From IMG/VR virus record IMGVR_UViG_2778260992_000001: 64,000 nt of DNA; one strand, written 5' to 3'. The notes under the pieces were generated by a model. That model was not told the origin of the DNA and made no database searches. It saw only the letters and a program-made list of their open reading frames with translations. The DNA is from a virus. Lineage: Duplodnaviria; Heunggongvirae; Uroviricota; Caudoviricetes. Of this stretch, positions 1,462-62,020 are shown in pieces. Both the position numbers and the translations under genes were made by a program. Position 1 is the stretch's first letter. The number at the start of each line of letters is the position of its first letter.

Positions 1462-1465
1462 AGCA

Positions 1466-3392: not shown

Positions 3393-3623
3393 ATGTCATA
3401 CCCGACCAATGTTGTTGCGCTCGTAGAGAGCGATTTTCTGGCTAAGGCTCGTGAAATGATGAAAGATCGCGAGCAGGCTTTCAACTTGTACGAATGGGCA
3501 ATTAAGTGCTTGCATCTTGGGGAGCATCGCGAACTTGTTGAACAGCTTTTAGGTGAGTTGATCAACGAGGTGTTTGCCTTGAATGTTCAACTACATGGTC
3601 GAGAAAATAACCAATCGAAATGA
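3393..3623 (+). CDS. hypothetical small protein
   Basis: 76-aa ORF with RBS aaggaaa upstream. Confidence 0.4.
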   Translation: MSYPTNVVALVESDFLAKAREMMKDREQAFNLYEWAIKCLHLGEHRELVEQLLGELINEVFALNVQLHGRENNQSK

Positions 3624-4120: not shown

Positions 4121-4204
4121 TTGTTTATTTTAATAATTATTACACGCACGCGTGTGCGCACGCGCGAGGAAAAAATCGGCGCGGCGCTTGATTCAGGAGT
4201 TTAT

Positions 4205-4795: not shown

Positions 4796-4943
4796 TAAGT
4801 AAGTGTTTACCTATCATTTTAAATCATGTATCTTATCGGCGTCAGGATGACAATGTGTCGGTAAGACACAGTTCCAGGATGGAACGAGAAAGGCGGCTGG
4901 CAATCGCCAGCCGCAACTCTTTCTGACACTGGATGGAGTCCAC

Positions 4944-5438: not shown

Positions 5439-5447
5439 GGCGGTTGT

Positions 5448-5636
5448 ATGAACTGGTTTTCAAATCACTTTGGAAAAATTTGGCTGGCAATTCTTGCCCT
5501 CATGGCCGCCGGTTGGGTATCGAACATTATAAAACTTGTTTGCTCTGGCGATCTCCAGTTTCAGGCTGGCATGACCTTGGCTCGTGTAGTTGGGATTTTT
5601 GTTTTTCCAGTTGGTTCGGTACTTGGTTATTTCTGA
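5448..5636 (+). CDS. hypothetical small membrane protein
   Basis: 62-aa ORF with two hydrophobic segments. Confidence 0.3.
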   Translation: MNWFSNHFGKIWLAILALMAAGWVSNIIKLVCSGDLQFQAGMTLARVVGIFVFPVGSVLGYF

Positions 5637-5690
5637 CGGCTGTTAGTGCATATGCATTGACCATCTCTGCGTAAGCAATTTATGTAATTA

Positions 5691-5708
5691 GAAAACAACT
5701 TGTTTTGA
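5691..5708. promoter_or_regulatory. palindromic operator-like site, class 1 (AAGAAAACAAnTTGTTTT)
   Basis: gaaaacaacttgttttg located ~25 bp upstream of ATG 5730. Confidence 0.5.
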
Positions 5709-5729
5709 CAAATAATAAAAGGAAAACAC

Positions 5730-6155
5730 ATGTTAGGTTTCTTCAAAAAGAAAACTCGTAAAGCTGTTATCGAAGTCAAAAAAATGGAGAACCGTGATGC
5801 GGTTGAGGCCACCGTGTGGGGCGCGTACATGATCTCCTATGCCGACGGCACATGTGACGCAAAAGAAATTGCCATTCTTGAGAAGACAATTGCAGCTCTG
5901 CCTGCGTTTTCTCCGTTTGCTGGTGAAATTGCCCAAATGAGCGCCAATATCCGTGCTCGTTACGAAGCGTCCCCTCGTTCTGCTAATGCACAGGCTATTC
6001 GTGAGCTGTCTGATATTGCGGGTACTCCAGAGGCGGTCGATGTTCTGTGTCTGTGCCTTGATATTGCCGATCAGGACGGCATTGGTGAACAAGAAGAGCA
6101 GGCACTGAAAAAGATCGCCCAGGCGCTTCAGTTGTCACTGGATGCTTATCTCTAA
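5730..6155 (+). CDS. hypothetical protein (possible TerB-like fold)
   Basis: 141-aa ORF; weak resemblance to TerB/DjlA-N helical domains only. Confidence 0.4.
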   Translation: MLGFFKKKTRKAVIEVKKMENRDAVEATVWGAYMISYADGTCDAKEIAILEKTIAALPAFSPFAGEIAQMSANIRARYEASPRSANAQAIRELSDIAGTPEAVDVLCLCLDIADQDGIGEQEEQALKKIAQALQLSLDAYL

Positions 6156-6313
6156 TGCTTGAGAGATTCCGGCTTGTGATCGTCATTGCTCTTCTGGTGA
6201 TGGCGGTGTTGGTGGATTTTACGGGAAAGATGATGTCTGTCATTTCTGATGGCGTCCTCATTGGTTTGGCGATCTACTTCGCTTATCCGTTAGTTCGTAA
6301 AGCAAAGTGCTAA
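6155..6313 (+). CDS. hypothetical small hydrophobic protein
   Basis: 52-aa ORF overlapping upstream stop (TAATG), largely hydrophobic; below the 60-aa track cutoff. Confidence 0.3.
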   Translation: MLERFRLVIVIALLVMAVLVDFTGKMMSVISDGVLIGLAIYFAYPLVRKAKC

Positions 6314-6315
6314 TG

Positions 6316-6342
6316 ACAAGGGCCAAATGGCCCTTGTGTTTC
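6316..6342 (+). terminator. terminator-like hairpin
   Basis: acaagggccaaatggcccttgt followed by gtttcg. Confidence 0.45.
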
Positions 6343-6417
6343 GTTGACCGAAATAGAGAGTTTGCACCTTTACGTTTAGCTTGCTCCCCTTTTATGCCAC
6401 ATCACAATAAAGCCAAT

Positions 6418-6435
6418 AAGAAAACAACTTGTTTA
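6418..6435. promoter_or_regulatory. palindromic operator-like site, class 1
   Basis: aagaaaacaacttgttta ~20 bp upstream of ATG 6453. Confidence 0.5.
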
Positions 6436-6452
6436 AGCATTAGGAAAAACAC

Positions 6453-7022
6453 ATGTGCAAGAAATGCAAAGCGATAGCTGATGAACAAAACGCCTTATTC
6501 GAAGAAATGGATGCTAATGAACTGGTCAAAATGTTAGCCATTCTTCGAGGAATAGAAGACGTTTCCATATTTGAGAGAGTGGTTACAGCACTTAATTTTG
6601 AGTCCACCTTTGAAGAGCCAACTCAGGTTGTAGCTTTAGCACATCATTTCGGTGTTCATTATCTTGCTGAAAAAGAGCGCGCTGATAAGTTGCAGGCGAC
6701 TTTGGATATGGTGAGCGAGACTCAACGAACTGATGACACTAACAAGAGTGAGGCGATTATTGCCAGCAAAGATCGTGAAATTGCTGGGCTTAAATCCTCT
6801 CTAACGATGTTGATGTCTGCGTTCAATCTTATGTCTTCTCAGGCGGGTTATAAAATGCCATCACTAAACAGCGATGATCCGATGGCCGTTCGTCAGCTTT
6901 TGGGAGCAATGGCCGACCAACTCGACGACACAAAGAGTCGGCTTGAAGACATGATGCGTGAGTTAAGCCATCGACATAACCTCGCAACACAGCCACACAA
7001 AGCCTTTCAAAGCTCTAATTGA
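6453..7022 (+). CDS. hypothetical protein
   Basis: 189-aa ORF downstream of class-1 palindrome. Confidence 0.5.
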   Translation: MCKKCKAIADEQNALFEEMDANELVKMLAILRGIEDVSIFERVVTALNFESTFEEPTQVVALAHHFGVHYLAEKERADKLQATLDMVSETQRTDDTNKSEAIIASKDREIAGLKSSLTMLMSAFNLMSSQAGYKMPSLNSDDPMAVRQLLGAMADQLDDTKSRLEDMMRELSHRHNLATQPHKAFQSSN

Positions 7023-7077
7023 TCTGATATGGCCGCATGATCGGCCATATTGTGTTGATAAAAAACAAGGATGAAAA

Positions 7078-7359
7078 ATGGCATACGGTACAGGGATTTA
7101 CAACAATAAAGGAATTAACGTTACTGGCTTCCTTACTCCTATTTTTTTTCTTGATCGATTTACTGCGTCATCAGGCTCTAAGACGTACTCCAATCCGCCA
7201 CCGGGTAAATCGCTACATGCCGTGTGGTCATTGATGCCTCTTAACAACGACAACTACATTAATTTACCTGTTCCAACAGTTACTATTAATGGAAATACGG
7301 TTAGTTGGTCAAATTTATATACGGGGCTTGGTTCTTACATATACACATACTGGGGATAA
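7078..7359 (+). CDS. hypothetical protein (N/Y/G/T-rich)
   Basis: 93-aa ORF in AT-rich segment. Confidence 0.35.
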   Translation: MAYGTGIYNNKGINVTGFLTPIFFLDRFTASSGSKTYSNPPPGKSLHAVWSLMPLNNDNYINLPVPTVTINGNTVSWSNLYTGLGSYIYTYWG

Positions 7360-7361
7360 TT

Positions 7362-7976
7362 ATGTTCGGGATGTCAATTACTCAATCAGATGGAAGTTTG
7401 TGGATGAGTCCAGAATTTACTCCGCAAAATCTGATTAATAAAGGGACAATGTCTACATCTAAAGGTTCTGTTTTTCAAACATCAATCCCATCAAACAAAT
7501 CATGCTTTTTCTTCATAAAAAGCAGTAATAAGGCGAACATGATGTTTATTCATGAGCATAGTAACGGATACAATGCTCTCAGATTGCATCAGGTAAATGG
7601 TAGCCCCGGAACAATAACAGTTTATGCTTTTTCTGATATGGTGTTACCACATTCTGGCTATGGCATTGCCATGTATAACAGCGCAGGCGCAATGGTGTAT
7701 CACGGTGAGATGATGCCCCTTGATGCGAAACTTATCACTATTTCGGACCCTCAATTTACCATAGATGTGGGGTATCCGTGTGCGGTAATGCCTGCTATGG
7801 TTGGGGTTTATAACTATAGACGAACCGATTACGACAGACCTGTCTATGTAACTATGACCGGTGCAACTGGAAACCAAGTATATAACGGTCAATGGTATTC
7901 CGGTAATGTCACATGGGATATTAAGAAGATTTATACAAACAAAATCCTGGTTATAAATACCTCAAAGTATGATTAG
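7362..7976 (+). CDS. hypothetical protein (N/Y/G/T-rich, probably beta-rich)
   Basis: ATG 7362 directly after upstream stop; 204 aa. Confidence 0.4.
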   Translation: MFGMSITQSDGSLWMSPEFTPQNLINKGTMSTSKGSVFQTSIPSNKSCFFFIKSSNKANMMFIHEHSNGYNALRLHQVNGSPGTITVYAFSDMVLPHSGYGIAMYNSAGAMVYHGEMMPLDAKLITISDPQFTIDVGYPCAVMPAMVGVYNYRRTDYDRPVYVTMTGATGNQVYNGQWYSGNVTWDIKKIYTNKILVINTSKYD

Positions 7977-8079
7977 CAAATACCTTTATTTAAAGGATTG
8001 CCTGTTAATTTCTATTTAGCACCTTTTCATTTTTGAAATAATTGCACCATTAAACAAATCTTTTCTTAATGGTGCAATT

Positions 8080-9765
8080 ATGAATACAGCCCTTTCCATC
8101 ATCGACGATGCCAACTCAAACACTGCTATCGATTATCGTCAGGAAATGAACGTCATCCACGAAATTGTGGCCGAGTGCGAGAAGGAGATCGCCTTCATGT
8201 ATCAGGTTCACGACTTCGTTTATGGAGACGAACGCCACAACATGATTAATCGCCTGCTGCAACTGAACCACCGACCAGATGAAGAACGCTCACGTTTGAA
8301 TCGAGCTTGGCTGGATAAAGTCGATCTGGAATGGGTGAAACAGAATATTTGGGCCGAGTACTGGAGGAAGGTCACGGATATGACTAACGTTCTGCTGATC
8401 ATGCCAGCTTCCCGTCGCGACGAGTGGCGTGAGCAGTTTATCGAGGGTAAGCAGGAAGTCATCAAAACTGACAGAACCGGCTATCAGATGAAGGTAAAAG
8501 AGTTCGTTGGTGTACCGGAGTTCAAAGCAGAAACGGTCATACCCACGATGCTTAATTTGCTGAATGACAGGCACAAATATCTCTCTGAGCGCGTGTATGG
8601 CTTGTTTAAGGCGCTGAGTCCTGCGCACAAGACAAATAAGACAAACGGTTTCAGCGAACGTCTGATAATCGCTGACTGCATTTCTGATTTCTGGCGGGAC
8701 AGCGTTAGCGTGAACTATCGCAAAGAGGACTACATCGACGATCTGCGTGTCTTGCTTCATTTCTTCGCGCACAAAGAATTTATTACCATCAACCGCACTG
8801 CTGAGGTGCTATCAGCTGCGTATAGGGCAAACGACTGCCAGACCGGTGACTGGATGAACGTCGATGGAAATCTGATGCGCGTGAAGATGTTCAAGAACGG
8901 CAACGTTCACTTTGAAATACATCCTGACGTGGCCTGGAAGTTGAATGAGGTGCTGGCTTACAGTATGCCTGCTGCAATCCCCGCGCCATGCCGAACTGCG
9001 CCAAAAACACGGGCACCAAAGCAGTTCGGTTTAATCCAGAAGACGATCTCCGTGCCGGTTCGCACTGCGCTTCGTGACGGGCGATTGAGCAAAGACAAAG
9101 GCGTATGGTACTTCTCTGATTCAGCTCTCCAGAAGTCGCAGGTGGAAGAGCTTGAGCGCACACTGAGCTTCATTGGCGGCGTGCAGGAGAAAAAGCACTG
9201 GCAGTTCCCGTATGAGATCGGCCATACGCTAAATACGATTGTGGCTACCGGATTAATACCGGATACAAAATCACACCAGTTCTACCCTACCCCACGCTTG
9301 ATTGCTGAGTACGTTGCCAGAGCCACTGAATTGAAGCCTGGTGAGAAGCTGCTGGAGCCTCAAGCCGGACGTGGGGATCTTCTGGCCTATATTAACGCCG
9401 ATCTGGAAGATGTTACCTGCATAGAAATCGCACCTCTCTTCGCTGATATCCTGCGTGGAAAAGGGTATACGAACACGATTTGCTGCGACTTCATAAAGTG
9501 GTCTGAGGACAACGCAGGTTATCAGTTCGACAAAATCGTTATGAACCCGCCGTACTCGCTTGGTCGTCATAGAGAGCACACGATGGCTGCGCTGGGGCAT
9601 CTGAAAGTCGGCGGGCGTCTTGTAGCAGTATTGCCGGGCACTGCGCCAATACTGGACTGGATGACGATGGATAATTACGTTTATGCCAGAGGGAAGTCGT
9701 TTACCAACGAGTTTGAAGATACCGGGATCACAGTCAGCGTATACGTTTTCAAACGCGTTAAATGA
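8080..9765 (+). CDS. putative DNA N6-adenine methyltransferase with large N-terminal domain of unknown function
   Basis: C-terminal region has SAM-binding-like EPQAGRGDL and catalytic NPPY (MNPPYS); N-terminal ~380 aa unassigned; perfect hairpin immediately upstream of ATG. Confidence 0.65.
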   Translation: MNTALSIIDDANSNTAIDYRQEMNVIHEIVAECEKEIAFMYQVHDFVYGDERHNMINRLLQLNHRPDEERSRLNRAWLDKVDLEWVKQNIWAEYWRKVTDMTNVLLIMPASRRDEWREQFIEGKQEVIKTDRTGYQMKVKEFVGVPEFKAETVIPTMLNLLNDRHKYLSERVYGLFKALSPAHKTNKTNGFSERLIIADCISDFWRDSVSVNYRKEDYIDDLRVLLHFFAHKEFITINRTAEVLSAAYRANDCQTGDWMNVDGNLMRVKMFKNGNVHFEIHPDVAWKLNEVLAYSMPAAIPAPCRTAPKTRAPKQFGLIQKTISVPVRTALRDGRLSKDKGVWYFSDSALQKSQVEELERTLSFIGGVQEKKHWQFPYEIGHTLNTIVATGLIPDTKSHQFYPTPRLIAEYVARATELKPGEKLLEPQAGRGDLLAYINADLEDVTCIEIAPLFADILRGKGYTNTICCDFIKWSEDNAGYQFDKIVMNPPYSLGRHREHTMAALGHLKVGGRLVAVLPGTAPILDWMTMDNYVYARGKSFTNEFEDTGITVSVYVFKRVK

Positions 9766-15948: not shown

Positions 15949-17049
15949 TCACACTGCGCGGAATGCGATTTCGCCAGGTATTACTTCACCTTGCCAATAC
16001 ATTTGGGCAGCAACGCGATCTGCGAGGTCACGATAAATAGCCGTAAATTCGCTATCTGGACGACTAATAACGGTTGGTGTTCCGTTATCCAGATCTTCAC
16101 GAAGAGAGATATGAAGTGGCATTTGGCCTAACAACTGCGTGTTGTATTTCTCGGCCAGTTTCTGTGCGCCACCGGTGCCAAAAATTGGCTCGTGATGACC
16201 GCAGTTACTGCAAATATGCACACTCATGTTTTCAACGATACCCAGTACCGGCACTTCGACTTTTTCGAACATCACAATGCCTTTCTTCGCATCGATCAGC
16301 GCGATGTCTTGCGGCGTAGTTACCACAACCGCACCAGTTACAGGAATGTTCTGCGCCAGCGTCAACTGAATATCACCAGTGCCCGGCGGCATATCGAGAA
16401 CGAGATAGTCCAGATCAGGCCACAGTGTTTCCTGCAACATCTGCATCAGCGCCTTGCTGGCCATCGGTCCACGCCACACCATTGCATTGTCGTCGGTGAC
16501 CAGATAACCAATAGAGTTGGTTGCCAGGCCATGAGACATGATAGGTGCCATGTGAGTACCGTCAGGTGAGGTTGGACGTTGGTTTTCCGAGCCCAGCATG
16601 GTTGGAATTGATGGACCATAGATATCGGCATCCAAAATACCAACTTTCGCACCTTCAGCAGCCAACGCCAGTGCCAGGTTTACCGCCGTGGAGGATTTAC
16701 CCACGCCGCCCTTGCCTGAGCTGACGGCGATAATGTTCTTCACGCCATTAATGCCTGGTTGGTTTTTGACGCGCTTAAGCGTGGCAATGTTGTACGACAG
16801 CTTCCAGTCAATAGCCTTTGCGCCAGTGATACGGAGCAGATCACCACTACATTGCTCTTTCAGGTCTTCAAAAGGCTTATTCCACACGAAAGGCATGATT
16901 AGTTCGACATGCAGTGTGTCATCCATCAACGCAACATGGTGTAACGCTTTAAGCGTAGTCAGGTTGTGTTTCAGGGTTGGGTGCTGAAAATTAGCCAGCG
17001 TACCGGCTACCATTGCTCTCAGGGCATCCGGCGATTTGGACTCGCTCAT
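15949..17049 (-). CDS. apbC: iron-sulfur cluster carrier ATPase ApbC/Mrp
   Basis: 366-aa translation with Mrp/NBP35 P-loop SSGKGGVGKS and CxxC (CSNCGHH); recognised as enterobacterial Mrp from recall. Confidence 0.9.
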   Translation of the reverse strand: MSESKSPDALRAMVAGTLANFQHPTLKHNLTTLKALHHVALMDDTLHVELIMPFVWNKPFEDLKEQCSGDLLRITGAKAIDWKLSYNIATLKRVKNQPGINGVKNIIAVSSGKGGVGKSSTAVNLALALAAEGAKVGILDADIYGPSIPTMLGSENQRPTSPDGTHMAPIMSHGLATNSIGYLVTDDNAMVWRGPMASKALMQMLQETLWPDLDYLVLDMPPGTGDIQLTLAQNIPVTGAVVVTTPQDIALIDAKKGIVMFEKVEVPVLGIVENMSVHICSNCGHHEPIFGTGGAQKLAEKYNTQLLGQMPLHISLREDLDNGTPTVISRPDSEFTAIYRDLADRVAAQMYWQGEVIPGEIAFRAV

Positions 17050-17206
17050 CCCGTCTCCTTTATTTTAATTTGCGCAATTGTCGCCTTGTAGTGTACTCCA
17101 GCTACGACATTTAATCATTTATGAGAAATGCTGTTATCACATGGCAGACATAAGGCCATTTTGTTACTATCAAGCCCCTTTTCACTACAAAGAAGTAATG
17201 CCTACT

Positions 17207-19240
17207 ATGACCCAAGTCGCGAAGAAAATTCTGGTGACGTGCGCGCTGCCGTACGCTAACGGCTCAATCCACCTCGGCCATATGCTGGAGCACATCCAGG
17301 CTGATGTCTGGGTTCGTTACCAGCGAATGCGCGGCCACGAGGTTAATTTCATCTGTGCCGACGATGCCCACGGTACGCCGATCATGCTGAAAGCACAGCA
17401 GCTTGGTATCACACCGGAACAGATGATTGGCGAAATGAGTCAGGAACACCAGACTGATTTTGCAGGCTTTAACATCAGCTATGACAACTATCACTCGACG
17501 CACAGCGAAGAGAACCGTCAGTTGTCCGAGCTTATCTATACTCGCCTGAAAGAGAACGGTTTTATTAAAAACCGCACCATCTCTCAGCTGTACGATCCGG
17601 AAAAAGGCATGTTCCTGCCGGACCGTTTTGTGAAAGGCACCTGCCCGAAATGTAAAGCACCGGATCAATACGGCGATAACTGTGAAGTCTGCGGCGCTAC
17701 TTACAGCCCGACTGAACTGATCGAGCCGAAATCGGTAGTTTCTGGTGCTACGCCGGTAATGCGTGATTCCGAACACTTCTTCTTTGATCTGCCTTCTTTC
17801 AGCGAAATGTTGCAGGCATGGACCCGCAGCGGTGCGTTGCAGGAGCAGGTGGCAAACAAAATGCAGGAGTGGTTTGAATCTGGCCTGCAACAGTGGGATA
17901 TCTCCCGCGATGCGCCGTACTTCGGTTTTGAAATTCCGAACGCACCGGGCAAATATTTCTACGTCTGGCTGGACGCGCCGATTGGCTACATGGGTTCCTT
18001 CAAGAATCTGTGCGACAAACGCGGCGACACTACCAGCTTCGACGAATACTGGAAGAAAGACTCCACCGCCGAGCTGTACCACTTCATCGGTAAAGATATC
18101 GTTTACTTCCACAGCCTGTTCTGGCCTGCCATGCTGGAAGGCAGCAATTTCCGCAAGCCGACCAACCTGTTTGTTCATGGCTATGTGACGGTGAACGGTG
18201 CGAAGATGTCCAAGTCTCGCGGCACCTTTATTAAAGCCAGCACCTGGCTGAATCATTTTGACGCTGACAGCCTGCGTTACTACTACACTGCGAAACTCTC
18301 TTCGCGCATTGATGATATCGATCTCAACCTGGAGGATTTCGTTCAGCGCGTGAATGCCGATATCGTGAACAAAGTGGTTAACCTGGCCTCCCGTAATGCA
18401 GGCTTTATCAACAAGCGTTTTGACGGCGTGCTGGCAAGCGAACTGGCTGACCCGCAACTGTACAAAACCTTTACTGATGCTGCTGAAGTGATTGGTGAAG
18501 CATGGGAAAGCCGCGAATTTGGTAAAGCGATTCGTGAAATCATGGCGCTGGCTGATCTGGCTAACCGCTATGTCGATGAACAGGCTCCGTGGGTGGTGGC
18601 GAAGCAGGAAGGGCGCGATGCCGATCTGCAGGCGATTTGCTCTATGGGCATTAACCTGTTCCGCGTGCTGATGACGTACCTGAAACCGGTACTGCCGAAA
18701 CTGACTGAACGTGCAGAAGCATTCCTGAATACAGAACTGACCTGGGATGGTATCCAGCAACCGCTGCTGGGCCATAAAGTGAATCCGTTCAAGGCACTGT
18801 ATAACCGCATCGACATGAAGCAGGTTGAAGCACTGGTGGAAGCATCCAAAGAGGAAGTAAAAGCCGCTGCCGCGCCAGTAACTGGCCCACTGGCAGATGA
18901 TCCGATTCAGGAAACCATCACCTTTGACGACTTCGCCAAAGTTGACCTGCGCGTGGCTCTGATTGAAAACGCGGAGTTTGTCGAAGGTTCTGACAAACTG
19001 CTTCGCCTGACGCTGGATCTCGGTGGCGAAAAACGTAATGTCTTCTCCGGCATTCGTTCCGCTTATCCAGATCCACAGGCACTGATTGGTCGTCACACCA
19101 TTATGGTGGCCAACCTGGCTCCGCGTAAAATGCGCTTCGGTATCTCCGAAGGCATGGTGATGGCTGCTGGCCCCGGCGGGAAAGATATCTTCCTGTTAAG
19201 CCCGGATGCTGGTGCTAAACCAGGCCACCAGGTTAAGTAA
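17207..19240 (+). CDS. metG: methionyl-tRNA synthetase
   Basis: translation from [29 protein letters not shown] (HIGH) through KMSKS and C-terminal tRNA-binding domain; appears near-identical to E. coli MetG as recalled; divergent from apbC as in the host chromosome. Confidence 0.95.
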
Positions 19241-51516: not shown

Positions 51517-51533
51517 ACAAGGATTTTTTGAAC

Positions 51534-54500
51534 ATGGAACAGTTCAAGAAGAAAAAGCTACCGCTGTTTATTGCCGGTGCGGGTGGTAAAAAAAGCAGCA
51601 AAAGCTCCAGCCGTACACCGGTTGAAGCCGACGATACCGTAAATTCTCGTGCAATGGCCGCTATCCTCGATCTTCTTGGGGAAGGGGTAATTGGCGGCTT
51701 AGTAAATGGCGCAAGATCTATTTTTATCGACGATCTGCCGATTGTAAATGAAGACGGTTCCTCCAACTTCAGCGGAATCACATGGGATTTTCGCGACGGT
51801 TCACAAGACCAGACTCCAATGTCTGGCTTTGATTTCGTTGAAACGCCTAAATCCGTCAATATCCAGTTAAAAAAAACACATTATGTAACGGTTTCAATCG
51901 ATAACGATGAAGCTGATCGGGTTCGTGTCATCATGAAGTTTCCTTCTTTGCGAAGCATAGATAAAAAAACTGGTGACACGAACGGTACGACTGTTGAGTA
52001 CAAGTTCCAGATAGCAAATGGCGACTCAACATTTGTAGATGTGGTCGCTGAAGGTGAAAAAAGCGTTGGCATTAAGCTAACAGCAAAGAAGACCGGCGTT
52101 TATTACCGTAGCTATGAGCTGAAGCTGCCTAAGCCTGGACGAGCATACAAGGTTCGTGTGGTCCGTATTACCGATGATAACAGTAGCCAGTATCTCTATA
52201 ACGATACATGGGTGGATTCAATCGGGGAAATTGTCGATACACCGATGAACTATCCAAACTCTGTTTTGGTTGGATTGAAGGTAAACTCTGAGCAATTCGG
52301 CAGCACCATGCCATCTCGCTCTTATCTGGTGCGTGGCCTAAAAATTCGAGTACCTTCAAACTATAACGAGTCCAGTAACACTTACGCTGGGGTATGGGAT
52401 GGCACTTTTAAGCTGTTGTCTTCTTCGAACCCCGCGTGGATTCTCTTTGATTTGCTGACCAATGCTCGATATGGCCTTGGTCAGTATGTGTCGGAATCTA
52501 TGATTGACCTTGGCCAGTTGTACCAGATTGGTCGATATTGTGACGAAGAGGTCGATGATGGCTTTGGTGGCAAAGAGAAACGCTTTGCAATCAATACGCA
52601 GATCACCAGTCGACAGGACGCATACCGGCTAATTCAGGATATTGCCGGAGCATTCCGCGGCATGGTGTTTTGGGCTGGTGGGATGGTTAACATCATGCAG
52701 GATAGCCCATCAGATCCGGTAATGATGTTTACCAACTCTAACGTCAAAGATGGATTGTTTACCTATAAAGGTTCTGCGCGTAAAGATCGCCCATCCGTTG
52801 CGCTCGTAACCTACAACAACAAGGAGGACGGTTATAAGCAAAACATCGAGTACGTCGAAGATCAGGACGCAATGCGCCGTTATGGTGAGCGTAAAACAGA
52901 AGTCGTAGCATTTGGCTGTACAAGCCGAGGGCAGGCTCACCGAGTTGGTTTGTGGCTTTTATATACCTCCAGAATGGAGTCGGATGTAATTACATTTACT
53001 GCCGGCTTAGACGCGTCATTTCTGATGCCTGGTGAAACCGTTCTGATTCAGAACAAATATCGCGCAGGCAAACGTAACTCAGGTCGAATTGTGGCGTTTA
53101 CCAAAAACAGCGTCACACTCGATGCGCCTGTGTCGTTAGCCAAAGGCGGCTGCTTTATTCGAATACTGAATCAGGAAGGCAAAATCGTTGAACGCGATGT
53201 TCTTGAAACTGGCGAAAATATAACAAAAGTTACGTTTTCAAAAGCCCTGTCTTCGGCTGAAACGCCTGTTTTGAACGGCGTCTGGACTATTACAGAACCA
53301 GACCTCGAACCTATGCGCGTTCGCATCGTTAACATCGCGCAGGGGGAAACGCCGGGTAGCTTTGACATCACCGCTGTTGAGAACAATCCGTCTAAATATG
53401 AGGCAATCGACAATGGTGCAACGCTGATCCCGCAGAATACGACGGTATTGGACCCAACTTACTCCAAGCCATCTAATCTGCAAATCACTGAAGGGACTTA
53501 TCTCTCAAGCCCGGGCAACCTGTCAGTAAAACTGACTGCAACATGGGAAGGGAAATCTCCAGAGTATTGGATCAGTTGGCGACGTTCTGATGAAAACAAT
53601 GTATCGAACTGGCAATCGGCGCGTGTAACCGAAGAGCAATACGAAATCGTTAATGTCGCGGAGAATGGACGCTACGACTTCCAGCTGTATGCGGTTTCAT
53701 TCAACGGTAAAAAAACAGAGATTATCAGTACCGTTTATCAGGTGTTGGGCACAATGACACCGCCGGATTCCCCAACGTCATTAACGGCCGTTGGAGACTA
53801 TCGTAATGTGATACTGAATTGGGTTAATCCAGATTCGGTAGACCTTGATCACATTAATGTTTACGCATCCCAGACCAACAATCTGGATACGGCGAAACTG
53901 ATCGCAGAGTCTGCAAGCACCACCTTTACACATGCTGGTCTTGGGGATAGCGAAACGTGGTATTACTGGGTTCGAGCATCGAACAAGCGAGGTATGTTAA
54001 GTCCTCCGAACTCAAACTTGGGTACAGAGGCGACAACTCGCGATGTACTGTCGTTCCTGACTGGCAAAATTACATCTTCCGAGCTTGGTCAGGCTCTGCT
54101 TGAGGACATCAACAGCAAAGCCTCTCAAGAAGCAGTTGACGAGTTAAATGAGCATATCAACCAGAGCGTCGAATCTTTGGAGGGGGCGGTAAACGACGTT
54201 AAGGAAGATATAGCTGAATTAGATAAGCAGTTCAGCGATAACCTCGCGGATTTTGAAATAAAATTCAACGAGCGTAGCGATGCTTTGGAGAACGCACAAA
54301 CCGAGCTTAAAGGTGAGGTTTCGGCAACGATCGACAAGGTCAATGAAGCGTTTGAAAAAATTGATGCTACTGATGCTGCAATTGTTGAAATCGAAAACAC
54401 CGTATCTGAACACGATAAAGCTCTCGCTAATACAGTCGAGGCAATAAAGGCTGCAAGAGATGAAGCGGCGGCTCTTATTGCTAAGGAAAGCGAGGCTCGT

Positions 54501-56261
54501 GTTGAAGGCGATGCTGCAAACGCTAAACAACTGGAAGTGTTGCAGTCAACGGTAGAGGAAAGCTCCGCTGCCGTTGAAGAAATGAAAAAGACGGTTGCAG
54601 AGGTCGATCGTGCCAGTGCAGAACTGACTACGAACATTGAGGCGTTAGCCAAAACAAATATTGACCTGGCTCTTCGTCAAGATGAAGACCAGCACAAGCA
54701 GATGGTCAATAACGCGAAGATCGCAACAACACAGAAAACCTTTGCTGATGATATGTCTGCAATGGCCACGAAGGTTGAGGAAATTCGCGTAGAAATTGGC
54801 GAAGACATTAAGGCCAGTATTCTGGAAGAGTCCACCGCTCGTGCCGATGGCGATGAAGCGTTGGCAAAGCGTGTCACTCAGCTGCAATCTAAGTTTGAAG
54901 GAGATATCAGCGCGGCGATTAGTACAGAGCAGGAGGCTCGTACATCTGCCGATGAAGCTCTGACGACACAGATCACTCAGCTTGAGTCGAAAGTAAGCAA
55001 CGATATCGTCGCAGCTATTAAGGAAGAGCAAGAAGCCCGAGCAACGGAAGATTCGGCTCTGGCAAGCCAGATCACCCAACTTCAGGCAAAGGTTGATGAT
55101 GATATTTCTGCTGCAATACGTAGTGAGCAGGAGGCCCGAGCAAGCGGGGACTCTGCGTTAGCCAAACAAATAAACCAGCTTCAGTCAAAGGTTGACGGTG
55201 ATATATCCGCTGCCATCACTCAGGAGCAGGAGGCCAGAGCAAGTGCTGACCAGGCGCTCTCACGAGAAATTAACAGCCTGCGAGCACAAACCGGAACTGA
55301 TATTGCCGCAGCGGTTGCTGTAGAGACAAAAGCAAGGACTGATGCCGATAGTGCATTGTCTACCCAGATTACGTCTCTTACAGCAAAAGCTAATGATCTC
55401 GAGGCGTCTCTTGCCAGAGAAACAACGGCTCGTGCAGATGGTGATACCGCTTTAACAAAAGAGGTTTCAAGTTTAAAAGCACAGACAGCGAAAGATATTA
55501 GTGCGGCCGTTGCAGTTGAAACGCAGGCTCGAACTGATGCTGACTCGGCGTTGTCGTCTCAGATCACCAAGCTGACCTCTCAATACAAAGAGGATATTAA
55601 AGCGGCTGTAGCAACCGAAACGAAAACGCGTACAGAGCAAGATGCGGCATTGGCGACTCAAATCACAAACTTAGAGTCTCAAACAGCAGCCAACATTTCT
55701 GCGGCGGTCACAACTGAAACGACAGCGAGAACGCAGGCAGATAATGCTCTGAGTGGGCGAATCGATACTCTGAAAGCAGAGGTGGATGGAAATACCGCGA
55801 CAATTCAACAGCAGGCAACAGCTATTGCTGATACCAACAAAAAAGTGTCAACCGCGTGGACGTTGAAAATGGAGACTTCAACGAGCGGAGGGCAGAAGTA
55901 TGTTGCCGGTATTGCGCTTGGTATTGACACCACTGGGCTATCTCAGTTTTTGGTTCAGGCGGACAGGTTTGGTTTGGTCAACTCTGTCAACGGGAAGATC
56001 ACCACGCCATTTGTTATCGAAAACAGTATTGCCTATATGAATGGTGCTTATATCAAGGATGGCACAATCACCAATGCAAAGGTAGGCGATCTGCAATCTA
56101 CCAATTTTGTTAGCGGTAGATCTGGATGGCGATTCGGTAAAAATGGAACGCTTGAAATAAACGGTAATAGCGGCGGCAATGGGCGATTGGTCATTAATGG
56201 TCAGCGGATTGACGTTTATGACGATAACAACGTCCTACGAGTAAGAATTGGCCGTCTGTGA
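51534..56261 (+). CDS. host specificity protein J (central tail fibre/tip protein) with internal coiled-coil tandem repeats
   Basis: N-terminal two-thirds collinear with lambda J as recalled (NSEQFGS, YCDEEVDDGFGG, FGCTSRGQAHRVGLWLL); ~30-aa repeats in the C-terminal part. Confidence 0.9.
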   Translation: MEQFKKKKLPLFIAGAGGKKSSKSSSRTPVEADDTVNSRAMAAILDLLGEGVIGGLVNGARSIFIDDLPIVNEDGSSNFSGITWDFRDGSQDQTPMSGFDFVETPKSVNIQLKKTHYVTVSIDNDEADRVRVIMKFPSLRSIDKKTGDTNGTTVEYKFQIANGDSTFVDVVAEGEKSVGIKLTAKKTGVYYRSYELKLPKPGRAYKVRVVRITDDNSSQYLYNDTWVDSIGEIVDTPMNYPNSVLVGLKVNSEQFGSTMPSRSYLVRGLKIRVPSNYNESSNTYAGVWDGTFKLLSSSNPAWILFDLLTNARYGLGQYVSESMIDLGQLYQIGRYCDEEVDDGFGGKEKRFAINTQITSRQDAYRLIQDIAGAFRGMVFWAGGMVNIMQDSPSDPVMMFTNSNVKDGLFTYKGSARKDRPSVALVTYNNKEDGYKQNIEYVEDQDAMRRYGERKTEVVAFGCTSRGQAHRVGLWLLYTSRMESDVITFTAGLDASFLMPGETVLIQNKYRAGKRNSGRIVAFTKNSVTLDAPVSLAKGGCFIRILNQEGKIVERDVLETGENITKVTFSKALSSAETPVLNGVWTITEPDLEPMRVRIVNIAQGETPGSFDITAVENNPSKYEAIDNGATLIPQNTTVLDPTYSKPSNLQITEGTYLSSPGNLSVKLTATWEGKSPEYWISWRRSDENNVSNWQSARVTEEQYEIVNVAENGRYDFQLYAVSFNGKKTEIISTVYQVLGTMTPPDSPTSLTAVGDYRNVILNWVNPDSVDLDHINVYASQTNNLDTAKLIAESASTTFTHAGLGDSETWYYWVRASNKRGMLSPPNSNLGTEATTRDVLSFLTGKITSSELGQALLEDINSKASQEAVDELNEHINQSVESLEGAVNDVKEDIAELDKQFSDNLADFEIKFNERSDALENAQTELKGEVSATIDKVNEAFEKIDATDAAIVEIENTVSEHDKALANTVEAIKAARDEAAALIAKESEARVEGDAANAKQLEVLQSTVEESSAAVEEMKKTVAEVDRASAELTTNIEALAKTNIDLALRQDEDQHKQMVNNAKIATTQKTFADDMSAMATKVEEIRVEIGEDIKASILEESTARADGDEALAKRVTQLQSKFEGDISAAISTEQEARTSADEALTTQITQLESKVSNDIVAAIKEEQEARATEDSALASQITQLQAKVDDDISAAIRSEQEARASGDSALAKQINQLQSKVDGDISAAITQEQEARASADQALSREINSLRAQTGTDIAAAVAVETKARTDADSALSTQITSLTAKANDLEASLARETTARADGDTALTKEVSSLKAQTAKDISAAVAVETQARTDADSALSSQITKLTSQYKEDIKAAVATETKTRTEQDAALATQITNLESQTAANISAAVTTETTARTQADNALSGRIDTLKAEVDGNTATIQQQATAIADTNKKVSTAWTLKMETSTSGGQKYVAGIALGIDTTGLSQFLVQADRFGLVNSVNGKITTPFVIENSIAYMNGAYIKDGTITNAKVGDLQSTNFVSGRSGWRFGKNGTLEINGNSGGNGRLVINGQRIDVYDDNNVLRVRIGRL

Positions 56262-56354: not shown

Positions 56355-59300
56355 ATGTGGTACAGGGAAGGTACTATCACATTTACACAGGGTAGCAATA
56401 CTCTGGTTGGGGCAGGGACAGCCTGGAACGTAACAGCTAATGGTGTGTTGCCTGGGATGATCGTCATTGGCCCCGACAACAAGCTGTATGAGATCAAGCG
56501 CGTAACCAGTGATACGAACATTGTTCTCTCAGAACCTTATACCGGCGAAACTCAGTCTGAAGTTCCGTGCCGAATCATTACGACCTATGAAGGCGACTTA
56601 ACACAGTTTAGCGCGCGCTTTACTGCACTAATGTCGCGTATGTCGGCTGATTCAAAGTCCATGCGCAGTTGGTTGACTGCTCTGGATGAGGTGACAATCG
56701 AGCGTGAAGACGGTACAGAAGTGACCGTTAAGCCGCTAATGCAGATCGTCAACGAGCACAACGAAAACGTTGAGTGGTATAAAAATAACACTGACGCGAT
56801 TGATGCTGCTGGCGACAAAGCTCGTGAGGCGGCGGCCAGTGCTGCCGCAGCAGCAGAAAGCGCCAATACCGCTGGAGAAAAAGCCTCTCAAGCGTCTCAA
56901 AGTGCATCCGCTGCGGCATCCTCACAAAGTGCTGCAAGTGCGAGCGCAACTGCTGCGAAAAAATCTGAAACGAACGCACAAGCCGCAAAAGAAGCGGCAG
57001 CAGAATCAGCATCTGTAGCGTCGGCCAAAGCATCGGAGGCAGCAACATCTGCGTCCAGTGCCTCTGCATCTAAGGATGCAGCCAAAGCATCAGAGACTAA
57101 CGCTTCATCGAGCGCAAACGCGGCAGCATCATCGGCAACAGAAGCTGCAAATTCGTCTAAGGCAGCAAAAACGTCAGAGGCAAACGCAAAAGCATCTGAA
57201 ACGGCAGCCGAACAGAGTGCATCGTCTGCAAACAGTTCGAAATCTGCGGCAGAAGCGTCAGCAAGCGCAGCCTCAGCAAGTGCGGATAGTGCTTCATCAA
57301 GTGCAACAGCGGCAGGAAAATCTGCGGATAGCGCATTGTCATCAGCGACAACAGCTACCACAAAAGCGACAGAGGCGACGAGTCAGGCTACAGCTGCTAA
57401 AAATTCAGCATCTGCAGCAAAAACCTCTGAAACAAATGCAAAGACTTCAGAAGACAATGCTGCTTCCTCTAAGGCGGCAGCTGCTGAATCTGCAAGTTCT
57501 GCGTCTGCATCAGCCTCCTCAGCATCCGCTTCAAAAGATGAGGCTACCAAGCAGGCATCAGAAGCGAAGGGCAGTGCTTCAACGGCATCCACGAAAGCAA
57601 CAGAGGCGGCAGGCAGTGCGACGGCTGCATCTCAGAGCAAAACTGCTGCTGAATCCGCTGCGACCCGTGCGGAAGCTGCTGCTGATCGTGCTGAAGAGAT
57701 TGCCGGTGCGGTTGCGATGGAAGACGCAAGCCTTACAACTAAAGGTGTTGTGAAACTTAGCAGTGCTGTCGATAGCACCAGTGAATCGCTGGCCGCAACG
57801 CCAAAAGCAGTTAAAGCAGCCAATGACAATGCGAATAGCAGGGTGCCATCTAACCGAAAAATTAACGGAAAAGCACTGACTGCGGATATAACATTAACGC
57901 CGAAAGATATTGGTACTTTAAATTCAGTAACGATGTCTTTCTCTGGCGGGGCTGGGTGGTTCAAACTGGCTACGGTTACCATGCCACAAGCGAGTTCCAT
58001 CGTTTACATCACATTGATTGGTGGTGCTGGATATAATGTTAACTCCCCTATGCAGGCTGGTATATCTGAACTTGTTCTTCGTGCGGGAAATGGAAATCCA
58101 AAAGGTCTTACTGGTGCGTTATGGCGAAGGACATCGGTTGGATTTACTAATTTTGCATGGGTGAATACATCCGGCGATACATATGATATTTATGTTGAGA
58201 TTGGCAATTATGCGACGAGTGTAAATGTCCACTGGGATTGTACTGCAAATGCGTCAGTTTCTATTTATACATCGCCAACATATTCAGCGAGTAAGCCTGC
58301 CAGCGTTACCGATGGTGTTGTTTATACGATGTATAGCTCACATCAGAAACCTACGCCATCAGATATTGGAGCACTGCCAACAACCGGAGGAACAGTTTCT
58401 GGTCCGTTGTCTGTTACAGGCGGATTAACTGGTTCATTGAATGGTAATGCAAGTACAGCAACGAAATTACAGACGACAAGAACTATCGGTGGAGTTGGTT
58501 TCGACGGTTCTGCCAATATTAATCTTCCAGGTGTAAACACTACGGGTAATCAGAACACCACTGGTAATGCCGCAACTGCTACAAAACTACAGACGGCAAG
58601 AACTATCGGCGGCGTGAGCTTTGATGGTACTGCAAATATTAATTTGCCAGGTGTTAATACGACTGGTAATCAGAATACAACAGGTAATGCGGCTACTGCT
58701 ACGAAGTTGCAGACTGCGCGTACTATTAATGGGGTGTCGTTTGACGGTTCGGCAAATATTTCCTTGTCACCAGCAAATATAGGTTGCCCGGCATCTCCTA
58801 CTGGTTGGTTAACTACAGGAAGTAATGGCGGAGCAATAACAACAGCCCAGTTAGTGACGTTATTGCAAAATAATGGAGCCTTTAACACAAAGGCATGGAT
58901 TGCTCGATGTGCGTGGGCCTATGCCAATAGCGCAACCATACCAAATAGTGAAACTGGTTGTGGCGTTATTCCATTGGCAGGAGCTGTTATAGAAGTATTT
59001 AATAACGGTAGTAGTTCAAATAATTATACGATCCGCATAACAACGGCCACAACGACAAGTGTTTCCGGTGCTCTCACTAATGCGGAGTTTATCTATGTAT
59101 TTAATGGCACAGATTATTCTCCAGGATGGCGAAGAGTATATAACACGAAAAACAAACCAACTGCATCTGACGTTGGTGCATTACCTCTTACCGGTGGTAC
59201 ATTATCTGGAGGTTTGACATCTTCTGGTGAGATCGTTTCAAAATATGCAAATGGTTTCCGCATTGCTTACGGTAGCTTTGGGTTCTTTATCCGTAATGAC

Positions 59301-60383
59301 GGCGGCAGCACATATTTCATGCTAACAGCATCAGGAGATACGTTAGGTTCATGGAACGGCTTGCGACCGATTACAATTAATAATACTAGCGGTGTTGTGT
59401 CTATTGGTAATGGACTAAATGTTACTGGTGGCGTAAATGGTAGTTTGAACGGTAATGCTTCAACAGCTACGAAGTTGCAAACAGCGAGAAACATCAATGG
59501 TGTTAAGTTTGATGGCTCAGGCGATATCAACATTAATACATTGGTATCTCGTGGCCGAGTTACGGCGTTAAGCGGCTCTACTCAAGGCACTGCTGGCATT
59601 CAAATGTACGAGGCGTACAACAATAGCTATCCGACCACGTATGGCAACGTATTGCACATGAAAGGTGCGAGTGCTGCTGGCGAGGGTGAGTTGCTTATTG
59701 GCTGGAGTGGTACGAGCGGTGCACATGCGCCGGTTTTCATTCGCTCCCGAAGAGATACCACTGATGCAGCATGGTCAGCGTGGGCACAGGTATATACCGC
59801 TAAGGATTCAATCCCTGGTGTGAATACAACCGGTAATCAGAACACTACTGGTAATGCTGCCACCGCCACAAAATTGCAGACAGCAAGGAAAATTGCTGGT
59901 GTGGCGTTTGATGGCTCTGCCGATATTACTTTGACTGCGGCTAACCTTAATGCCTATACGAAAACAGAGGTAACAAACCTTCTAAGTTCCTATGTGAAGA
60001 GCAGTTCTCTTCCAAGCATGACTGTGCGAACTTCCTCTGTTTCAGGTGGGGATATGGGCATGAGTTTGTCCGCATTCATTAGCCACCTTAAATCAAATGG
60101 GGCGTTTAGCAAAAGTTATTGGATTGGCTTTGGCGATGCTATGGGATTCAATGCTGGCAGTATCAACAATATAACGGGATTTGGTGCTGTAGAATTAGCA
60201 GAATCCATAATCGAAGTTTTTAATCTACCTAATGGTGATTATACAATTCGTTTAACGACGTCACACAAAGCTGACTACGGTGGGATTACAAACGCAATCC
60301 TCGTTTATCACTACCGCAGTAATAGAAACCCGGCAGGTCAATGGCTTAAATTTGCCGGTACTCTTGGGGCTACAAACAACTGA
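56355..60383 (+). CDS. side tail fibre protein
   Basis: Ala/Ser-rich SETNAK-type low-complexity region, conserved AATPKAVK fibre motif, repeated GNAATATKLQTARTIGGV modules. Confidence 0.85.
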   Translation: MWYREGTITFTQGSNTLVGAGTAWNVTANGVLPGMIVIGPDNKLYEIKRVTSDTNIVLSEPYTGETQSEVPCRIITTYEGDLTQFSARFTALMSRMSADSKSMRSWLTALDEVTIEREDGTEVTVKPLMQIVNEHNENVEWYKNNTDAIDAAGDKAREAAASAAAAAESANTAGEKASQASQSASAAASSQSAASASATAAKKSETNAQAAKEAAAESASVASAKASEAATSASSASASKDAAKASETNASSSANAAASSATEAANSSKAAKTSEANAKASETAAEQSASSANSSKSAAEASASAASASADSASSSATAAGKSADSALSSATTATTKATEATSQATAAKNSASAAKTSETNAKTSEDNAASSKAAAAESASSASASASSASASKDEATKQASEAKGSASTASTKATEAAGSATAASQSKTAAESAATRAEAAADRAEEIAGAVAMEDASLTTKGVVKLSSAVDSTSESLAATPKAVKAANDNANSRVPSNRKINGKALTADITLTPKDIGTLNSVTMSFSGGAGWFKLATVTMPQASSIVYITLIGGAGYNVNSPMQAGISELVLRAGNGNPKGLTGALWRRTSVGFTNFAWVNTSGDTYDIYVEIGNYATSVNVHWDCTANASVSIYTSPTYSASKPASVTDGVVYTMYSSHQKPTPSDIGALPTTGGTVSGPLSVTGGLTGSLNGNASTATKLQTTRTIGGVGFDGSANINLPGVNTTGNQNTTGNAATATKLQTARTIGGVSFDGTANINLPGVNTTGNQNTTGNAATATKLQTARTINGVSFDGSANISLSPANIGCPASPTGWLTTGSNGGAITTAQLVTLLQNNGAFNTKAWIARCAWAYANSATIPNSETGCGVIPLAGAVIEVFNNGSSSNNYTIRITTATTTSVSGALTNAEFIYVFNGTDYSPGWRRVYNTKNKPTASDVGALPLTGGTLSGGLTSSGEIVSKYANGFRIAYGSFGFFIRNDGGSTYFMLTASGDTLGSWNGLRPITINNTSGVVSIGNGLNVTGGVNGSLNGNASTATKLQTARNINGVKFDGSGDININTLVSRGRVTALSGSTQGTAGIQMYEAYNNSYPTTYGNVLHMKGASAAGEGELLIGWSGTSGAHAPVFIRSRRDTTDAAWSAWAQVYTAKDSIPGVNTTGNQNTTGNAATATKLQTARKIAGVAFDGSADITLTAANLNAYTKTEVTNLLSSYVKSSSLPSMTVRTSSVSGGDMGMSLSAFISHLKSNGAFSKSYWIGFGDAMGFNAGSINNITGFGAVELAESIIEVFNLPNGDYTIRLTTSHKADYGGITNAILVYHYRSNRNPAGQWLKFAGTLGATNN

Positions 60384-60501
60384 TTTAGGGATTATTTATA
60401 TGGCTGTGTGGTTTAAAAATGCGATTTCACAGCCGCAATCATAGGGATATATTAGTGAGTTACTAGATGCGAATATGAACAACCGTTAAACGGTATATGT
60501 A

Positions 60502-60524
60502 TAGGTAGGTAAGTATATACCTAC
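60502..60524. promoter_or_regulatory. palindromic site, class 2
   Basis: taggtaggtaagtatatacctac upstream of lysis cassette. Confidence 0.45.
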
Positions 60525-60586
60525 AATTAAAAGGAGAAGTGTGATATAAATCCGCCATCCCGATTTGACTTTTCACGGAGGAAAAC

Positions 60587-60910
60587 ATGTCGAACGAGAT
60601 GGCGGGCGTTACAACAGAGCAAGTTGAGCGTATTGCCGCGATCGTTGCTCGGGAGGTTGTTGGCAAATTAGGCAAAGAGCTACGTGAAGAAATTGGCCAG
60701 GAGGTCAATGATCAGCTGAAAACCTACTTTGGTGATATGACCCCGGCGCAACATAGTATTCAACACTCCAACCTGGACAAGCTCCTTAACCGGTTAGATT
60801 CCATCTCCAGTGGGTTCTTTGGCGGCATTGTTTCTAAAATAACGTCGTTCATTATTACTGCACTGCTTTTGGGGTTAGCCGCGTATGGCGTAAAAAATGG
60901 ACTGCAATAA
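60587..60910 (+). CDS. hypothetical membrane protein, possible holin
   Basis: 107 aa with one C-terminal hydrophobic helix; first gene of lysis cassette. Confidence 0.35.
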   Translation: MSNEMAGVTTEQVERIAAIVAREVVGKLGKELREEIGQEVNDQLKTYFGDMTPAQHSIQHSNLDKLLNRLDSISSGFFGGIVSKITSFIITALLLGLAAYGVKNGLQ

Positions 60911-60923
60911 CAGGAGATCAAGG

Positions 60924-61616
60924 ATGAAGACTCCGAGAGGCATTCGTAATAATAACCCCGGTAATCTTGATAAAGGATCACCGTGGCAAGGTCTGGTTGC
61001 GAATCCAGATGAACCGCGCTTTTGCACGTTTAAAGACCCTGTTTGGGGGATTCGTGCGTTGGCGGTGACTCTAATTACCTACCACGACAAACGTCGCGCA
61101 AAAGACGGCTCAAGTATCGATACCATTCGTGAAGTTATTGAACGTTGGGCACCGCCGAATGAAAACAACACTGACGCCTACATTAATGAGGTGTCTAAAG
61201 CCGTTGGTGTAACCGCAGACATGATCATCGATCTGCATGATTACGACATTCTTCGACCTTTGGTTGAGGCAATCATTCGCCATGAGAATGGGCGAGGTCC
61301 GCTAAAAACGCTGAACACCTGGTATGCGGCAGAAGTTATTGAGGAAGGTCTGCGTCGAGCTGGCGTCGTTAAGCCGGTGAAAACCGTGAAGGCTGTTCCT
61401 GTAACTAAAGAAACAGCAGGCGCAACTGTCACAGCAGGTATTGGTCTGGCGCAGCTGGCCGATGTTATGCCGCAGGTTTCCGCTGCTATGGATAAAGCAC
61501 AAGGTCATATCTCTAGCGGGGATACAGTACGCATCATCTTCGGTATTGCCACTATTGTTGTGGCTGGATTTATCGCCTGGTCGCAGGTAAGAAGACACCA
61601 GAAAGGGATGGTCTAA
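60924..61616 (+). CDS. putative endolysin (cell-wall hydrolase) with C-terminal membrane anchor
   Basis: position between holin-like gene and spanins; C-terminal hydrophobic segment; catalytic family not assigned. Confidence 0.4.
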   Translation: MKTPRGIRNNNPGNLDKGSPWQGLVANPDEPRFCTFKDPVWGIRALAVTLITYHDKRRAKDGSSIDTIREVIERWAPPNENNTDAYINEVSKAVGVTADMIIDLHDYDILRPLVEAIIRHENGRGPLKTLNTWYAAEVIEEGLRRAGVVKPVKTVKAVPVTKETAGATVTAGIGLAQLADVMPQVSAAMDKAQGHISSGDTVRIIFGIATIVVAGFIAWSQVRRHQKGMV

Positions 61617-61617
61617 T

Positions 61618-61869
61618 ATGCTAGGCAGCCTGATGACAAAGCTAAAAGTTGCTTTGATTACGCTGGCTGCCGTTCTTTTCGTTCTGGTCGGCGCTTACAC
61701 GATGGGCGGAAATGCGGCGCGACGAGCAATGGAAGAGAAGGCAAAACAGGAAGACAGGAAACGACTTCAAAGCACAGTGGACGTCAAAAATGAAACACTT
61801 GATGAGTTACGGAGCAAGGATGCTTCTACTGTTCATCATGAGTTGCACAATAAGTGGTTGCGTGATTAA
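61618..61869 (+). CDS. i-spanin (Rz-like)
   Basis: N-terminal TM helix then charged coiled-coil region; contains overlapping +1 frame lipoprotein gene. Confidence 0.6.
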   Translation: MLGSLMTKLKVALITLAAVLFVLVGAYTMGGNAARRAMEEKAKQEDRKRLQSTVDVKNETLDELRSKDASTVHHELHNKWLRD

Positions 61870-62020
61870 GCCTCAACCCGATGGGGTGCTTTTCTGCGAT
61901 GCGGCTACACCGCTATACATCAGCCGTGATGATCTCATGACCGAAGAGACTGAAAGAGAGGTGCTTTTTCACAATATGATTGGGGAGCGATTGTGTGGAT
62001 GGGGCAGAAAAGTGCCATAA
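61790..62020 (+). CDS. o-spanin (Rz1-like lipoprotein), overlapping Rz in +1 frame
   Basis: signal peptide with lipobox ISGC, Pro-rich mature start; begins inside Rz and extends beyond it. Confidence 0.55.
   Translation: MKHLMSYGARMLLLFIMSCTISGCVIKPQPDGVLFCDAATPLYISRDDLMTEETEREVLFHNMIGERLCGWGRKVP

Follow-up and report, generated by a model that had tools for sequence, protein, structure and literature searches.

A side tail fibre that ends in a Mu S'-type module, with no known helper gene, in an Escherichia SSU5-like phage-plasmid

The fibre gene and its domains

The window analysed here is a 64,000-nt stretch of tailed-virus DNA (IMG/VR record IMGVR_UViG_2778260992_000001) from an Escherichia SSU5-like (pHCM2-like) phage-plasmid, a common E. 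coli type, and our subject is its side tail fibre gene, which ends in a domain of the phage Mu S' type. The gene (56355-60383, + strand) encodes 1342 aa according to the open reading frame (ORF) list and its translation, and matches PHROG tail-fibre families. It is preceded by a J-like tail tip gene (51528-56261) and followed by a holin gene, an order shared with phage Cyrano and plasmid pG749_2. The wider arrangement of J, fibre, lysis cassette and parA is that of SSU5-like elements, and the N-terminal part of the fibre is homologous to SSU5_021. The 6.1 kb around the fibre (end of J, fibre and lysis genes) is 99.3% identical at the nucleotide level to pG749_2 (NZ_CP014490.1) and 90.7% identical to Cyrano (pLF82). 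In PLSDB, 108 plasmids cover 80% or more of this 6.1-kb query, an extent that alternative cassette types can reach too. The pG749_2 fibre, annotated as 'phage tail protein' (WP_230893836.1), is 100% identical in amino acid sequence to that of the window. The gene belongs to the fibre family of SSU5-like phage-plasmids and already stands, unremarked, in RefSeq. The original prediction, made from the letters alone, had allowed that a sequencing error might conceal an ORF after the fibre; the identical protein in pG749_2 and the PLSDB matches exclude this.

The ORF and the domain homologies agree with that prediction in describing a mosaic fibre of 1342 aa. All of its parts are given here on the + strand. 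An SSU5-type N-terminal anchoring region (aa 1-150; 56355-56804) is 100% identical to Cyrano and 99% identical to the E. albertii plasmid pEA26_1, and lies inside a longer stretch (aa 1-1060) that aligns with SSU5 gp21 (SSU5_021) at 46% identity. It is followed by an Ala/Ser-rich low-complexity shaft (aa 151-450; 56805-57704) with 39% Ala, 24% Ser and five SE[TAD]NA motifs, and then by the AATPKAVK module (aa 451-505; 57705-57869), with the motif at aa 480 and matches to residues 105-156 of Mu S and S'. Both the SETNAK-type region and the AATPKAVK module had been correctly recognised from the letters. A shaft of the same kind is present in the lambdoid Stf-like fibre of E. coli RM10740, described below.

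The connector motif GNA[AS]TATKLQT[AT]R.I.GV.FDG occurs five times (aa 697, 737, 777, 1033 and 1166), not four times as first counted. The earlier view that distinct segments separate the repeats holds for the last two copies and fails for the first three, which form a plain tandem array of 40-aa repeats (aa 697-806; 58443-58772); distinct domains follow copies 4 and 5 only. Directly after the array lies an internal Mu S'-type domain (aa 807-930; 58773-59144), a paralogue of the terminal module, detected by phmmer as a match of aa 790-950 to residues 186-334 of Mu S' (PDB 8ju3; domain E 1.4e-27). The sole Pfam domain in the fibre, Gp34_trimer (PF21446; aa 907-1008; 59073-59378), was found at E 2.3e-28 with a score of 99.5 bits against a gathering cut-off of 27. 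The overlapping stretch aa 931-1028 matches residues 243-340 of Mu S (5yvq) and also T4 gp34 (4uxe). Domains of the two alternative Mu fibres, S' and S, are here concatenated in one polypeptide.

Beyond these domains the fibre is divided by comparison with its closest relatives. The Cyrano fibre (CYRAN_21) is 86% identical to that of the window and, like that of pG749_2, shares its locus, architecture and terminal module, with no gene between fibre and holin. The two differ sharply only at aa 1033-1165 (59451-59849), which holds repeat 4 and a variable globular domain. Identity there drops to 39%, with a nonsynonymous divergence (dN) of 0.74, between flanks that are 92-100% identical. A second module has been exchanged here, and it is a candidate for determining host range. 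Repeat 5 and a helical linker (aa 1166-1214; 59850-59996), delimited by the pEA26_1 alignment and with a helix at model residues 9-20, lead to the terminal module (aa 1215-1342; 59997-60380), a compact alpha/beta domain with the fold of Mu S' (gp52).

The last ~110 residues match 8ju3 directly (E 1e-8), agreeing in sequence and fold with the Mu S' domain (8JU3 ~215-330), and are paralogous to the internal S'-type domain at 36% identity (E 9e-13). The paralogy is visible only when segments are compared with each other, as a self-BLAST of the whole protein returned only the self match. An AlphaFold2 model from a 29-sequence alignment gave a compact alpha/beta domain after a helix (pLDDT 80.8, pTM 0.72), while a single-sequence model of aa 1009-1342 (pLDDT 34) was discarded. 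The significant BFVD neighbours of the module (E <= 0.001) were three long tail-fibre proteins of 746-1190 residues. We collected the domain family by an exhaustive search of 1.84 billion representative proteins, a word-indexed search with the C-terminus having yielded mainly near-identical fragments, and obtained 65 proteins with E <= 0.001. Six representative proteins, 63-100% identical, form a family in which the domain is terminal; they keep the tail ...QWLKFAG..GAT.. and are without the two cysteines typical of internal copies. The module is under purifying selection, with a ratio of nonsynonymous to synonymous substitution (dN/dS) of 0.09 against a lambdoid copy at dS 1.1 and of 0.11-0.22 against plasmid copies, and this argues against an accidental truncation.

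Search for a helper

Tail-fibre tips decide host range, and the majority of the enterobacterial fibres that have been studied well depend on a cognate helper, be it Tfa, gp38, gp57A or a cleavable S74 domain. At the window's locus, 203 bp of non-coding DNA (60384-60586) separate the fibre stop from the holin gene, and the absence of a tfa-like ORF from this gap, as originally predicted, was borne out. The only ORFs touching the gap (60280-60444, + strand; 60463-60708, - strand) have no family match, a six-frame scan of it showed no trace of tfa, and the whole window, gap included, is without an Rfam match. A hidden RNA or small ORF in the gap was rejected on the Rfam and six-frame results. The hairpins and the palindrome (60509-60524) noted earlier are present, together with one promoter-like site, at no excess over shuffled sequence or chance. 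The lysis cassette (60587-62020, + strand) then begins with the holin gene (60587-60910), followed by endolysin (60897-61616), Rz (61618-61869) and Rz1 (inside 61712-62020). Its PHROG matches (endolysin, Rz-like spanins) and the Cyrano annotation indicate that the gene 3' of the fibre is not a fibre helper.

We searched six-frame translations of the window and of the complete 110-kb pG749_2 by phmmer with Mu U, Mu U', lambda Tfa, the SSU5 gp38-like adhesin and T4 gp57A, and with a hidden Markov model (HMM) of the Caudo_TAP type built from Mu U, U', lambda Tfa and E. fergusonii Tfa. Neither the HMM nor phmmer found a Tfa homologue in either target, and the same HMM detected a 30-codon tfa stub in the RM10740 prophage (E 4.9e-9), which served as a positive control. 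Directly after the fibre there is no Caudo_TAP (PF02413) gene, and the holin comes next. No homologue of the gp38-like adhesin SSU5_022 (Gp38_N) was found in the window or in pG749_2, nor any of T4 gp57A, for which the best phmmer match had E 5.8; the gp57A tblastn matches listed in the phage collection are T4-like phages. No assembly protein appears by PGAP name among the listed genes of pG749_2, whose gene table is incomplete, and a Pfam search of the unassigned ORFs of the structural module gave nothing relevant. The suggestion that a chaperone is encoded elsewhere on the element thus found no support. Peptidase_S74 (PF13884) is absent from the window fibre at E <= 0.1, and the same search finds it in SSU5_021 (aa 1158-1212) and in the pEA26_1 fibre (aa 1273-1329).

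The comparison with Mu locates where the window fibre ends. The AATPKAVK module, the S'-type domain (twice here) and the S-type Gp34_trimer-like domain are homologous to parts of Mu S' (gp52, 8JU3) and S (gp49, 5YVQ). The Mu fibres run on for ~150-160 residues into a distal domain and are followed by tfa (U or U'), whereas the window fibre stops after the S'-type domain and has no U homologue. In Mu, Tfa binds the distal domain of the fibre. That domain (Mu S ~340-504, Mu S' ~335-488) has no match in the window fibre, whose PDB matches stop at Mu S' 334 and Mu S 340. Lambda Stf-Tfa and P2 H-G are likewise side or long fibres with exchangeable C-terminal cassettes, but the downstream Tfa is missing in the window. 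SSU5_021 occupies the orthologous position and has Gp34_trimer in common with the window fibre; it differs in its Peptidase_S74 end, followed by the gp38-type adhesin SSU5_022 (Gp38_N), a phrog_557/425 pair and Cor, none of which is present at the window's fibre locus. The K1F endosialidase and T5 pb1, both with S74, need no separate helper gene; alleles of the window's fibre use S74, whereas the window allele is without it. Because the defining features of the Tfa, gp38 and S74 classes were all looked for and are absent, the window fibre is placed, on sequence comparison, outside the Tfa-dependent, gp38-capped (T2, S16 and SSU5 type) and S74 classes. A missing helper is not surprising in itself, since fibres without a chaperone gene are known: gp52/gp53 of Shigella phage Sf14 have Mu-like fibre parts, and its genome has no homologue of Mu gp50/gp51 (PMC11821841). 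Sf14 is a different type of phage with different tips, and the likeness lies in the fibre parts and the missing chaperone gene.

Tip cassettes in SSU5-like plasmids and in other phages

The pEA26_1 fibre is 97% identical to that of the window up to aa 1219 and diverges completely beyond. DNA alignment of the two loci places the left recombination junction at ~59995 (...LLSSY) and the right one at ~60505, 80 bp before the holin ATG. The window cassette between them (~59996-60505) is ~510 bp long and consists of 128 codons and ~120 non-coding bases. Its non-coding 3' part (60384-60505, no strand assigned) is not homologous to pEA26_1 and has neither an ORF nor a tfa remnant within it, while the region upstream of the holin gene (60506-60586, + strand) is near-identical in pEA26_1 despite the other cassette. 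Between the same junctions pEA26_1 has ~1.7 kb, comprising an S74 tip, ORFs of 84 aa and 188 aa (phrog_557 and phrog_425 types) and a cor-like lipoprotein gene, and then the same holin. Other SSU5-like plasmids have in this interval a fibre and a 'receptor-recognizing protein' (gp38 type, as in SSU5), and further ones a fibre and a 'tail fiber assembly protein' (Caudo_TAP confirmed in E. fergusonii). Plasmid p009_B has the same terminal module, accompanied by ~80 nt of the non-coding 3' part of the cassette, and then a phrog_557/425 pair and cor, with no tfa. As read from these alignments, tip and helper travel as a unit, and the tip type of the window travels without a helper.

The same module ends fibres in other backbones. 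A lambdoid prophage adjoining potB in three E. coli chromosomes has an intact fibre of the Stf type, 798 aa long, that begins with lambda-type phage_tail_N. Its module is 81% identical in amino acid sequence to that of the window and stops at the same position. What is left of tfa, its last ~30 codons, starts ~100 nt after this fibre, and then comes potB. In the annotation of one of these chromosomes, E. coli RM10740, PGAP calls the fibre a pseudogene 'missing C-terminus'; the ORF (2949-5393 of the extracted locus) is intact and ends in the module, tfa (5494-5595) is truncated, and the pseudogene call is probably an annotation artefact of model length.

In the jumbo phage Goslar, gp090 has a Gly-rich tip and is followed by the Tfa gp089 (Caudo_TAP) and then gp088. 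We found a Goslar-like contig, JAECOQ010000006.1 of assembly GCA_016018055.1, with flanks 94-95% identical to Goslar, in which the Goslar tip and tfa (~1.07 kb) are swapped for the module, without tfa. The contig's module is 67% identical in amino acid sequence to that of the window, and homology to Goslar resumes just past the position of the Goslar tfa stop (compared spans: Goslar locus 973-5363, contig 5001-8963). The next gene after the contig's fibre is a homologue of gp088, a lipoprotein. A 168-aa gene that follows both the Goslar-like fibre and metagenomic fibres was considered as a new chaperone, which is unlikely: its product is a lipoprotein (lipobox LGGC), and Goslar has it beside Tfa. 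One metagenomic fibre (P0048) likewise ends in the domain, and its neighbour genes are on the opposite strand.

By these comparisons, a single small module takes the place of tip-plus-helper units in three backbones that are unrelated to one another, a comparative point that is modestly new. The comparison with the fibre loci of relatives had been suggested in the original prediction; its outcome, that the tip is a swappable module replacing tip-plus-helper cassettes, had gone unseen there.

Interpretation of the terminal module

The anatomy and homologies of the fibre, the limits of the cassette, the lack of any known helper gene and the purifying selection on the module can be taken as established. 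On this basis we suggest that the terminal module can probably serve as the distal end by itself, with no dedicated helper of the Tfa, gp38 or S74 kind. More tentatively, and with somewhat more doubt than trust, the Mu S'-type module may be a portable chaperone-free tip that displaces tip-plus-helper cassettes (an S74 tip, a Gly-rich tip with Tfa, or a tip with Tfa) by recombination in the conserved connector and linker, among phage-plasmids of siphovirus type, in lambdoid prophages and in a jumbo myovirus. The fibre is built like beads on a string, with an SSU5-type anchor, the Ala/Ser-rich shaft and the AATPKAVK module followed by globular domains, and the GNAATATKLQTAR connector repeats that join these domains would double as recombination joints. 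The module would fold autonomously, without Tfa, a gp38 adhesin or a cleavable S74 chaperone. Plausible determinants of the trimer register are the Gp34_trimer domain and the helical linker, the module itself, or a combination of these, and a cell-surface receptor may be bound via the tip and/or the variable domain at aa 1033-1165.

Several points weigh against this interpretation. Terminal use of the domain is the exception, since at least 100 residues follow it in 48 of the 57 other clusters at 50% identity and fewer than 20 in only 3 of the 57 clusters outside the terminal family. T4 gp34, which shares Gp34_trimer, requires the general chaperone gp57A. The lambdoid copies, lying as they do at the end of a prophage, may come from defective prophages. 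Among the many ORFs of the element that have no known function there might be an unrecognised helper. Phage Cyrano, by contrast, counts in favour of the interpretation: it has the same tip and no tfa, and its induction yields siphovirus particles that contain DNA, although they were not demonstrated to be infectious (PMC9928086).

The alternative that survives best is that a helper is needed after all, whether a chaperone of the host or a phage protein from another locus that went unrecognised, and we regard it as less likely than the self-sufficient tip. Many ORFs without a family match leave room for such a protein, and one candidate is a phrog_557/425 pair (window 7078-7976). Its two overlapping ORFs on the + strand, at 7078-7359 (93 aa, phrog_557) and 7305-7976 (223 aa, phrog_425), lie 49 kb from the fibre. 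They are paralogous to SSU5_023/024 (E 5.7e-6 and 4.9e-9), and in SSU5, pEA26_1 and p009_B paralogues of the pair come straight after the fibre or adhesin; in p009_B that fibre ends in the terminal module itself, and cor follows the pair. The pair nevertheless accompanies gp38-capped, S74 and terminal-module fibres alike, and also occurs in Stx and T1-like phages with annotations as membrane or outer-membrane proteins. T1-like phages and Stx phages (933W L0126/L0127) have homologues of the phrog_425 type, and the ORF beside these often bears the name 'outer membrane protein'. With this distribution and membrane annotation, a moron or exclusion role fits the pair better than that of a tip-specific chaperone. 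Nor is there a conserved partner in the 13.9 kb around the Goslar-like fibre or in the lambdoid J-potB region, apart from the lipoprotein that Goslar has alongside Tfa.

It is considerably less probable that the fibre is truncated and decaying, a deletion having removed the true tip and tfa and left a normally internal domain as an accidental end. The domain is indeed internal in most fibre families, and a tfa stub does follow it in the lambdoid prophage. Several facts stand against this. Three backbones have one and the same stop position and the conserved tail ...QWLKFAG..GAT.., at 63-100% identity, and dN/dS ranges from 0.09 to 0.22 with dS as high as 1.1. On the left, the boundary reflects a clean exchange within a shared linker and not a deletion inside a longer fibre, and the terminal module is present in 86 complete E. 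coli genomes. Folding via a cleaved C-terminal intramolecular chaperone, as in endosialidase or T5 pb1 and as the original prediction had proposed, has next to no likelihood, for although sister alleles (as in pEA26_1) and the SSU5 orthologue have Peptidase_S74, the window fibre has no such match and its C-terminal 128 residues are fully explained by the Mu S'-type domain.

Returning to the self-sufficient tip, its interest would extend beyond this locus. The need for helpers complicates fibre swapping in phage engineering, and if the proposal is true, a 0.5-kb tip that passes between very different phages as one cassette, with no helper in tow, would be of practical use as a building block, in natural as in engineered fibres. 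With it one could also study cleanly what frees a trimeric fibre from the need for chaperones. For the window, the outcome is mainly one of clarification: tfa is truly missing, a module exchange explains its absence, the element is an E. coli phage-plasmid of a very common type, and the fibre itself is ordinary.

Some minor observations concern neighbouring parts of the window. An 11-nt inverted repeat (60552-60562/60595-60605, 91% complementary) brackets the Shine-Dalgarno sequence and ATG of the holin gene and could form a translational control hairpin for holin; the ~80 bp around it are kept in all fibre-cassette types. Adjoining the phrog_557/425 pair, an ORF at 8080-9765 (+ strand) encodes a 561-aa DUF4942 protein (PHROG 'DNA methyltransferase'). 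Two host-like genes, apbC (mrp; 15949-17049, - strand) and metG (methionyl-tRNA synthetase; 17078-19240, + strand), lie side by side in the phage-plasmid, and this stretch is common to ~200 Escherichia SSU5-like plasmids at 95-99% identity.

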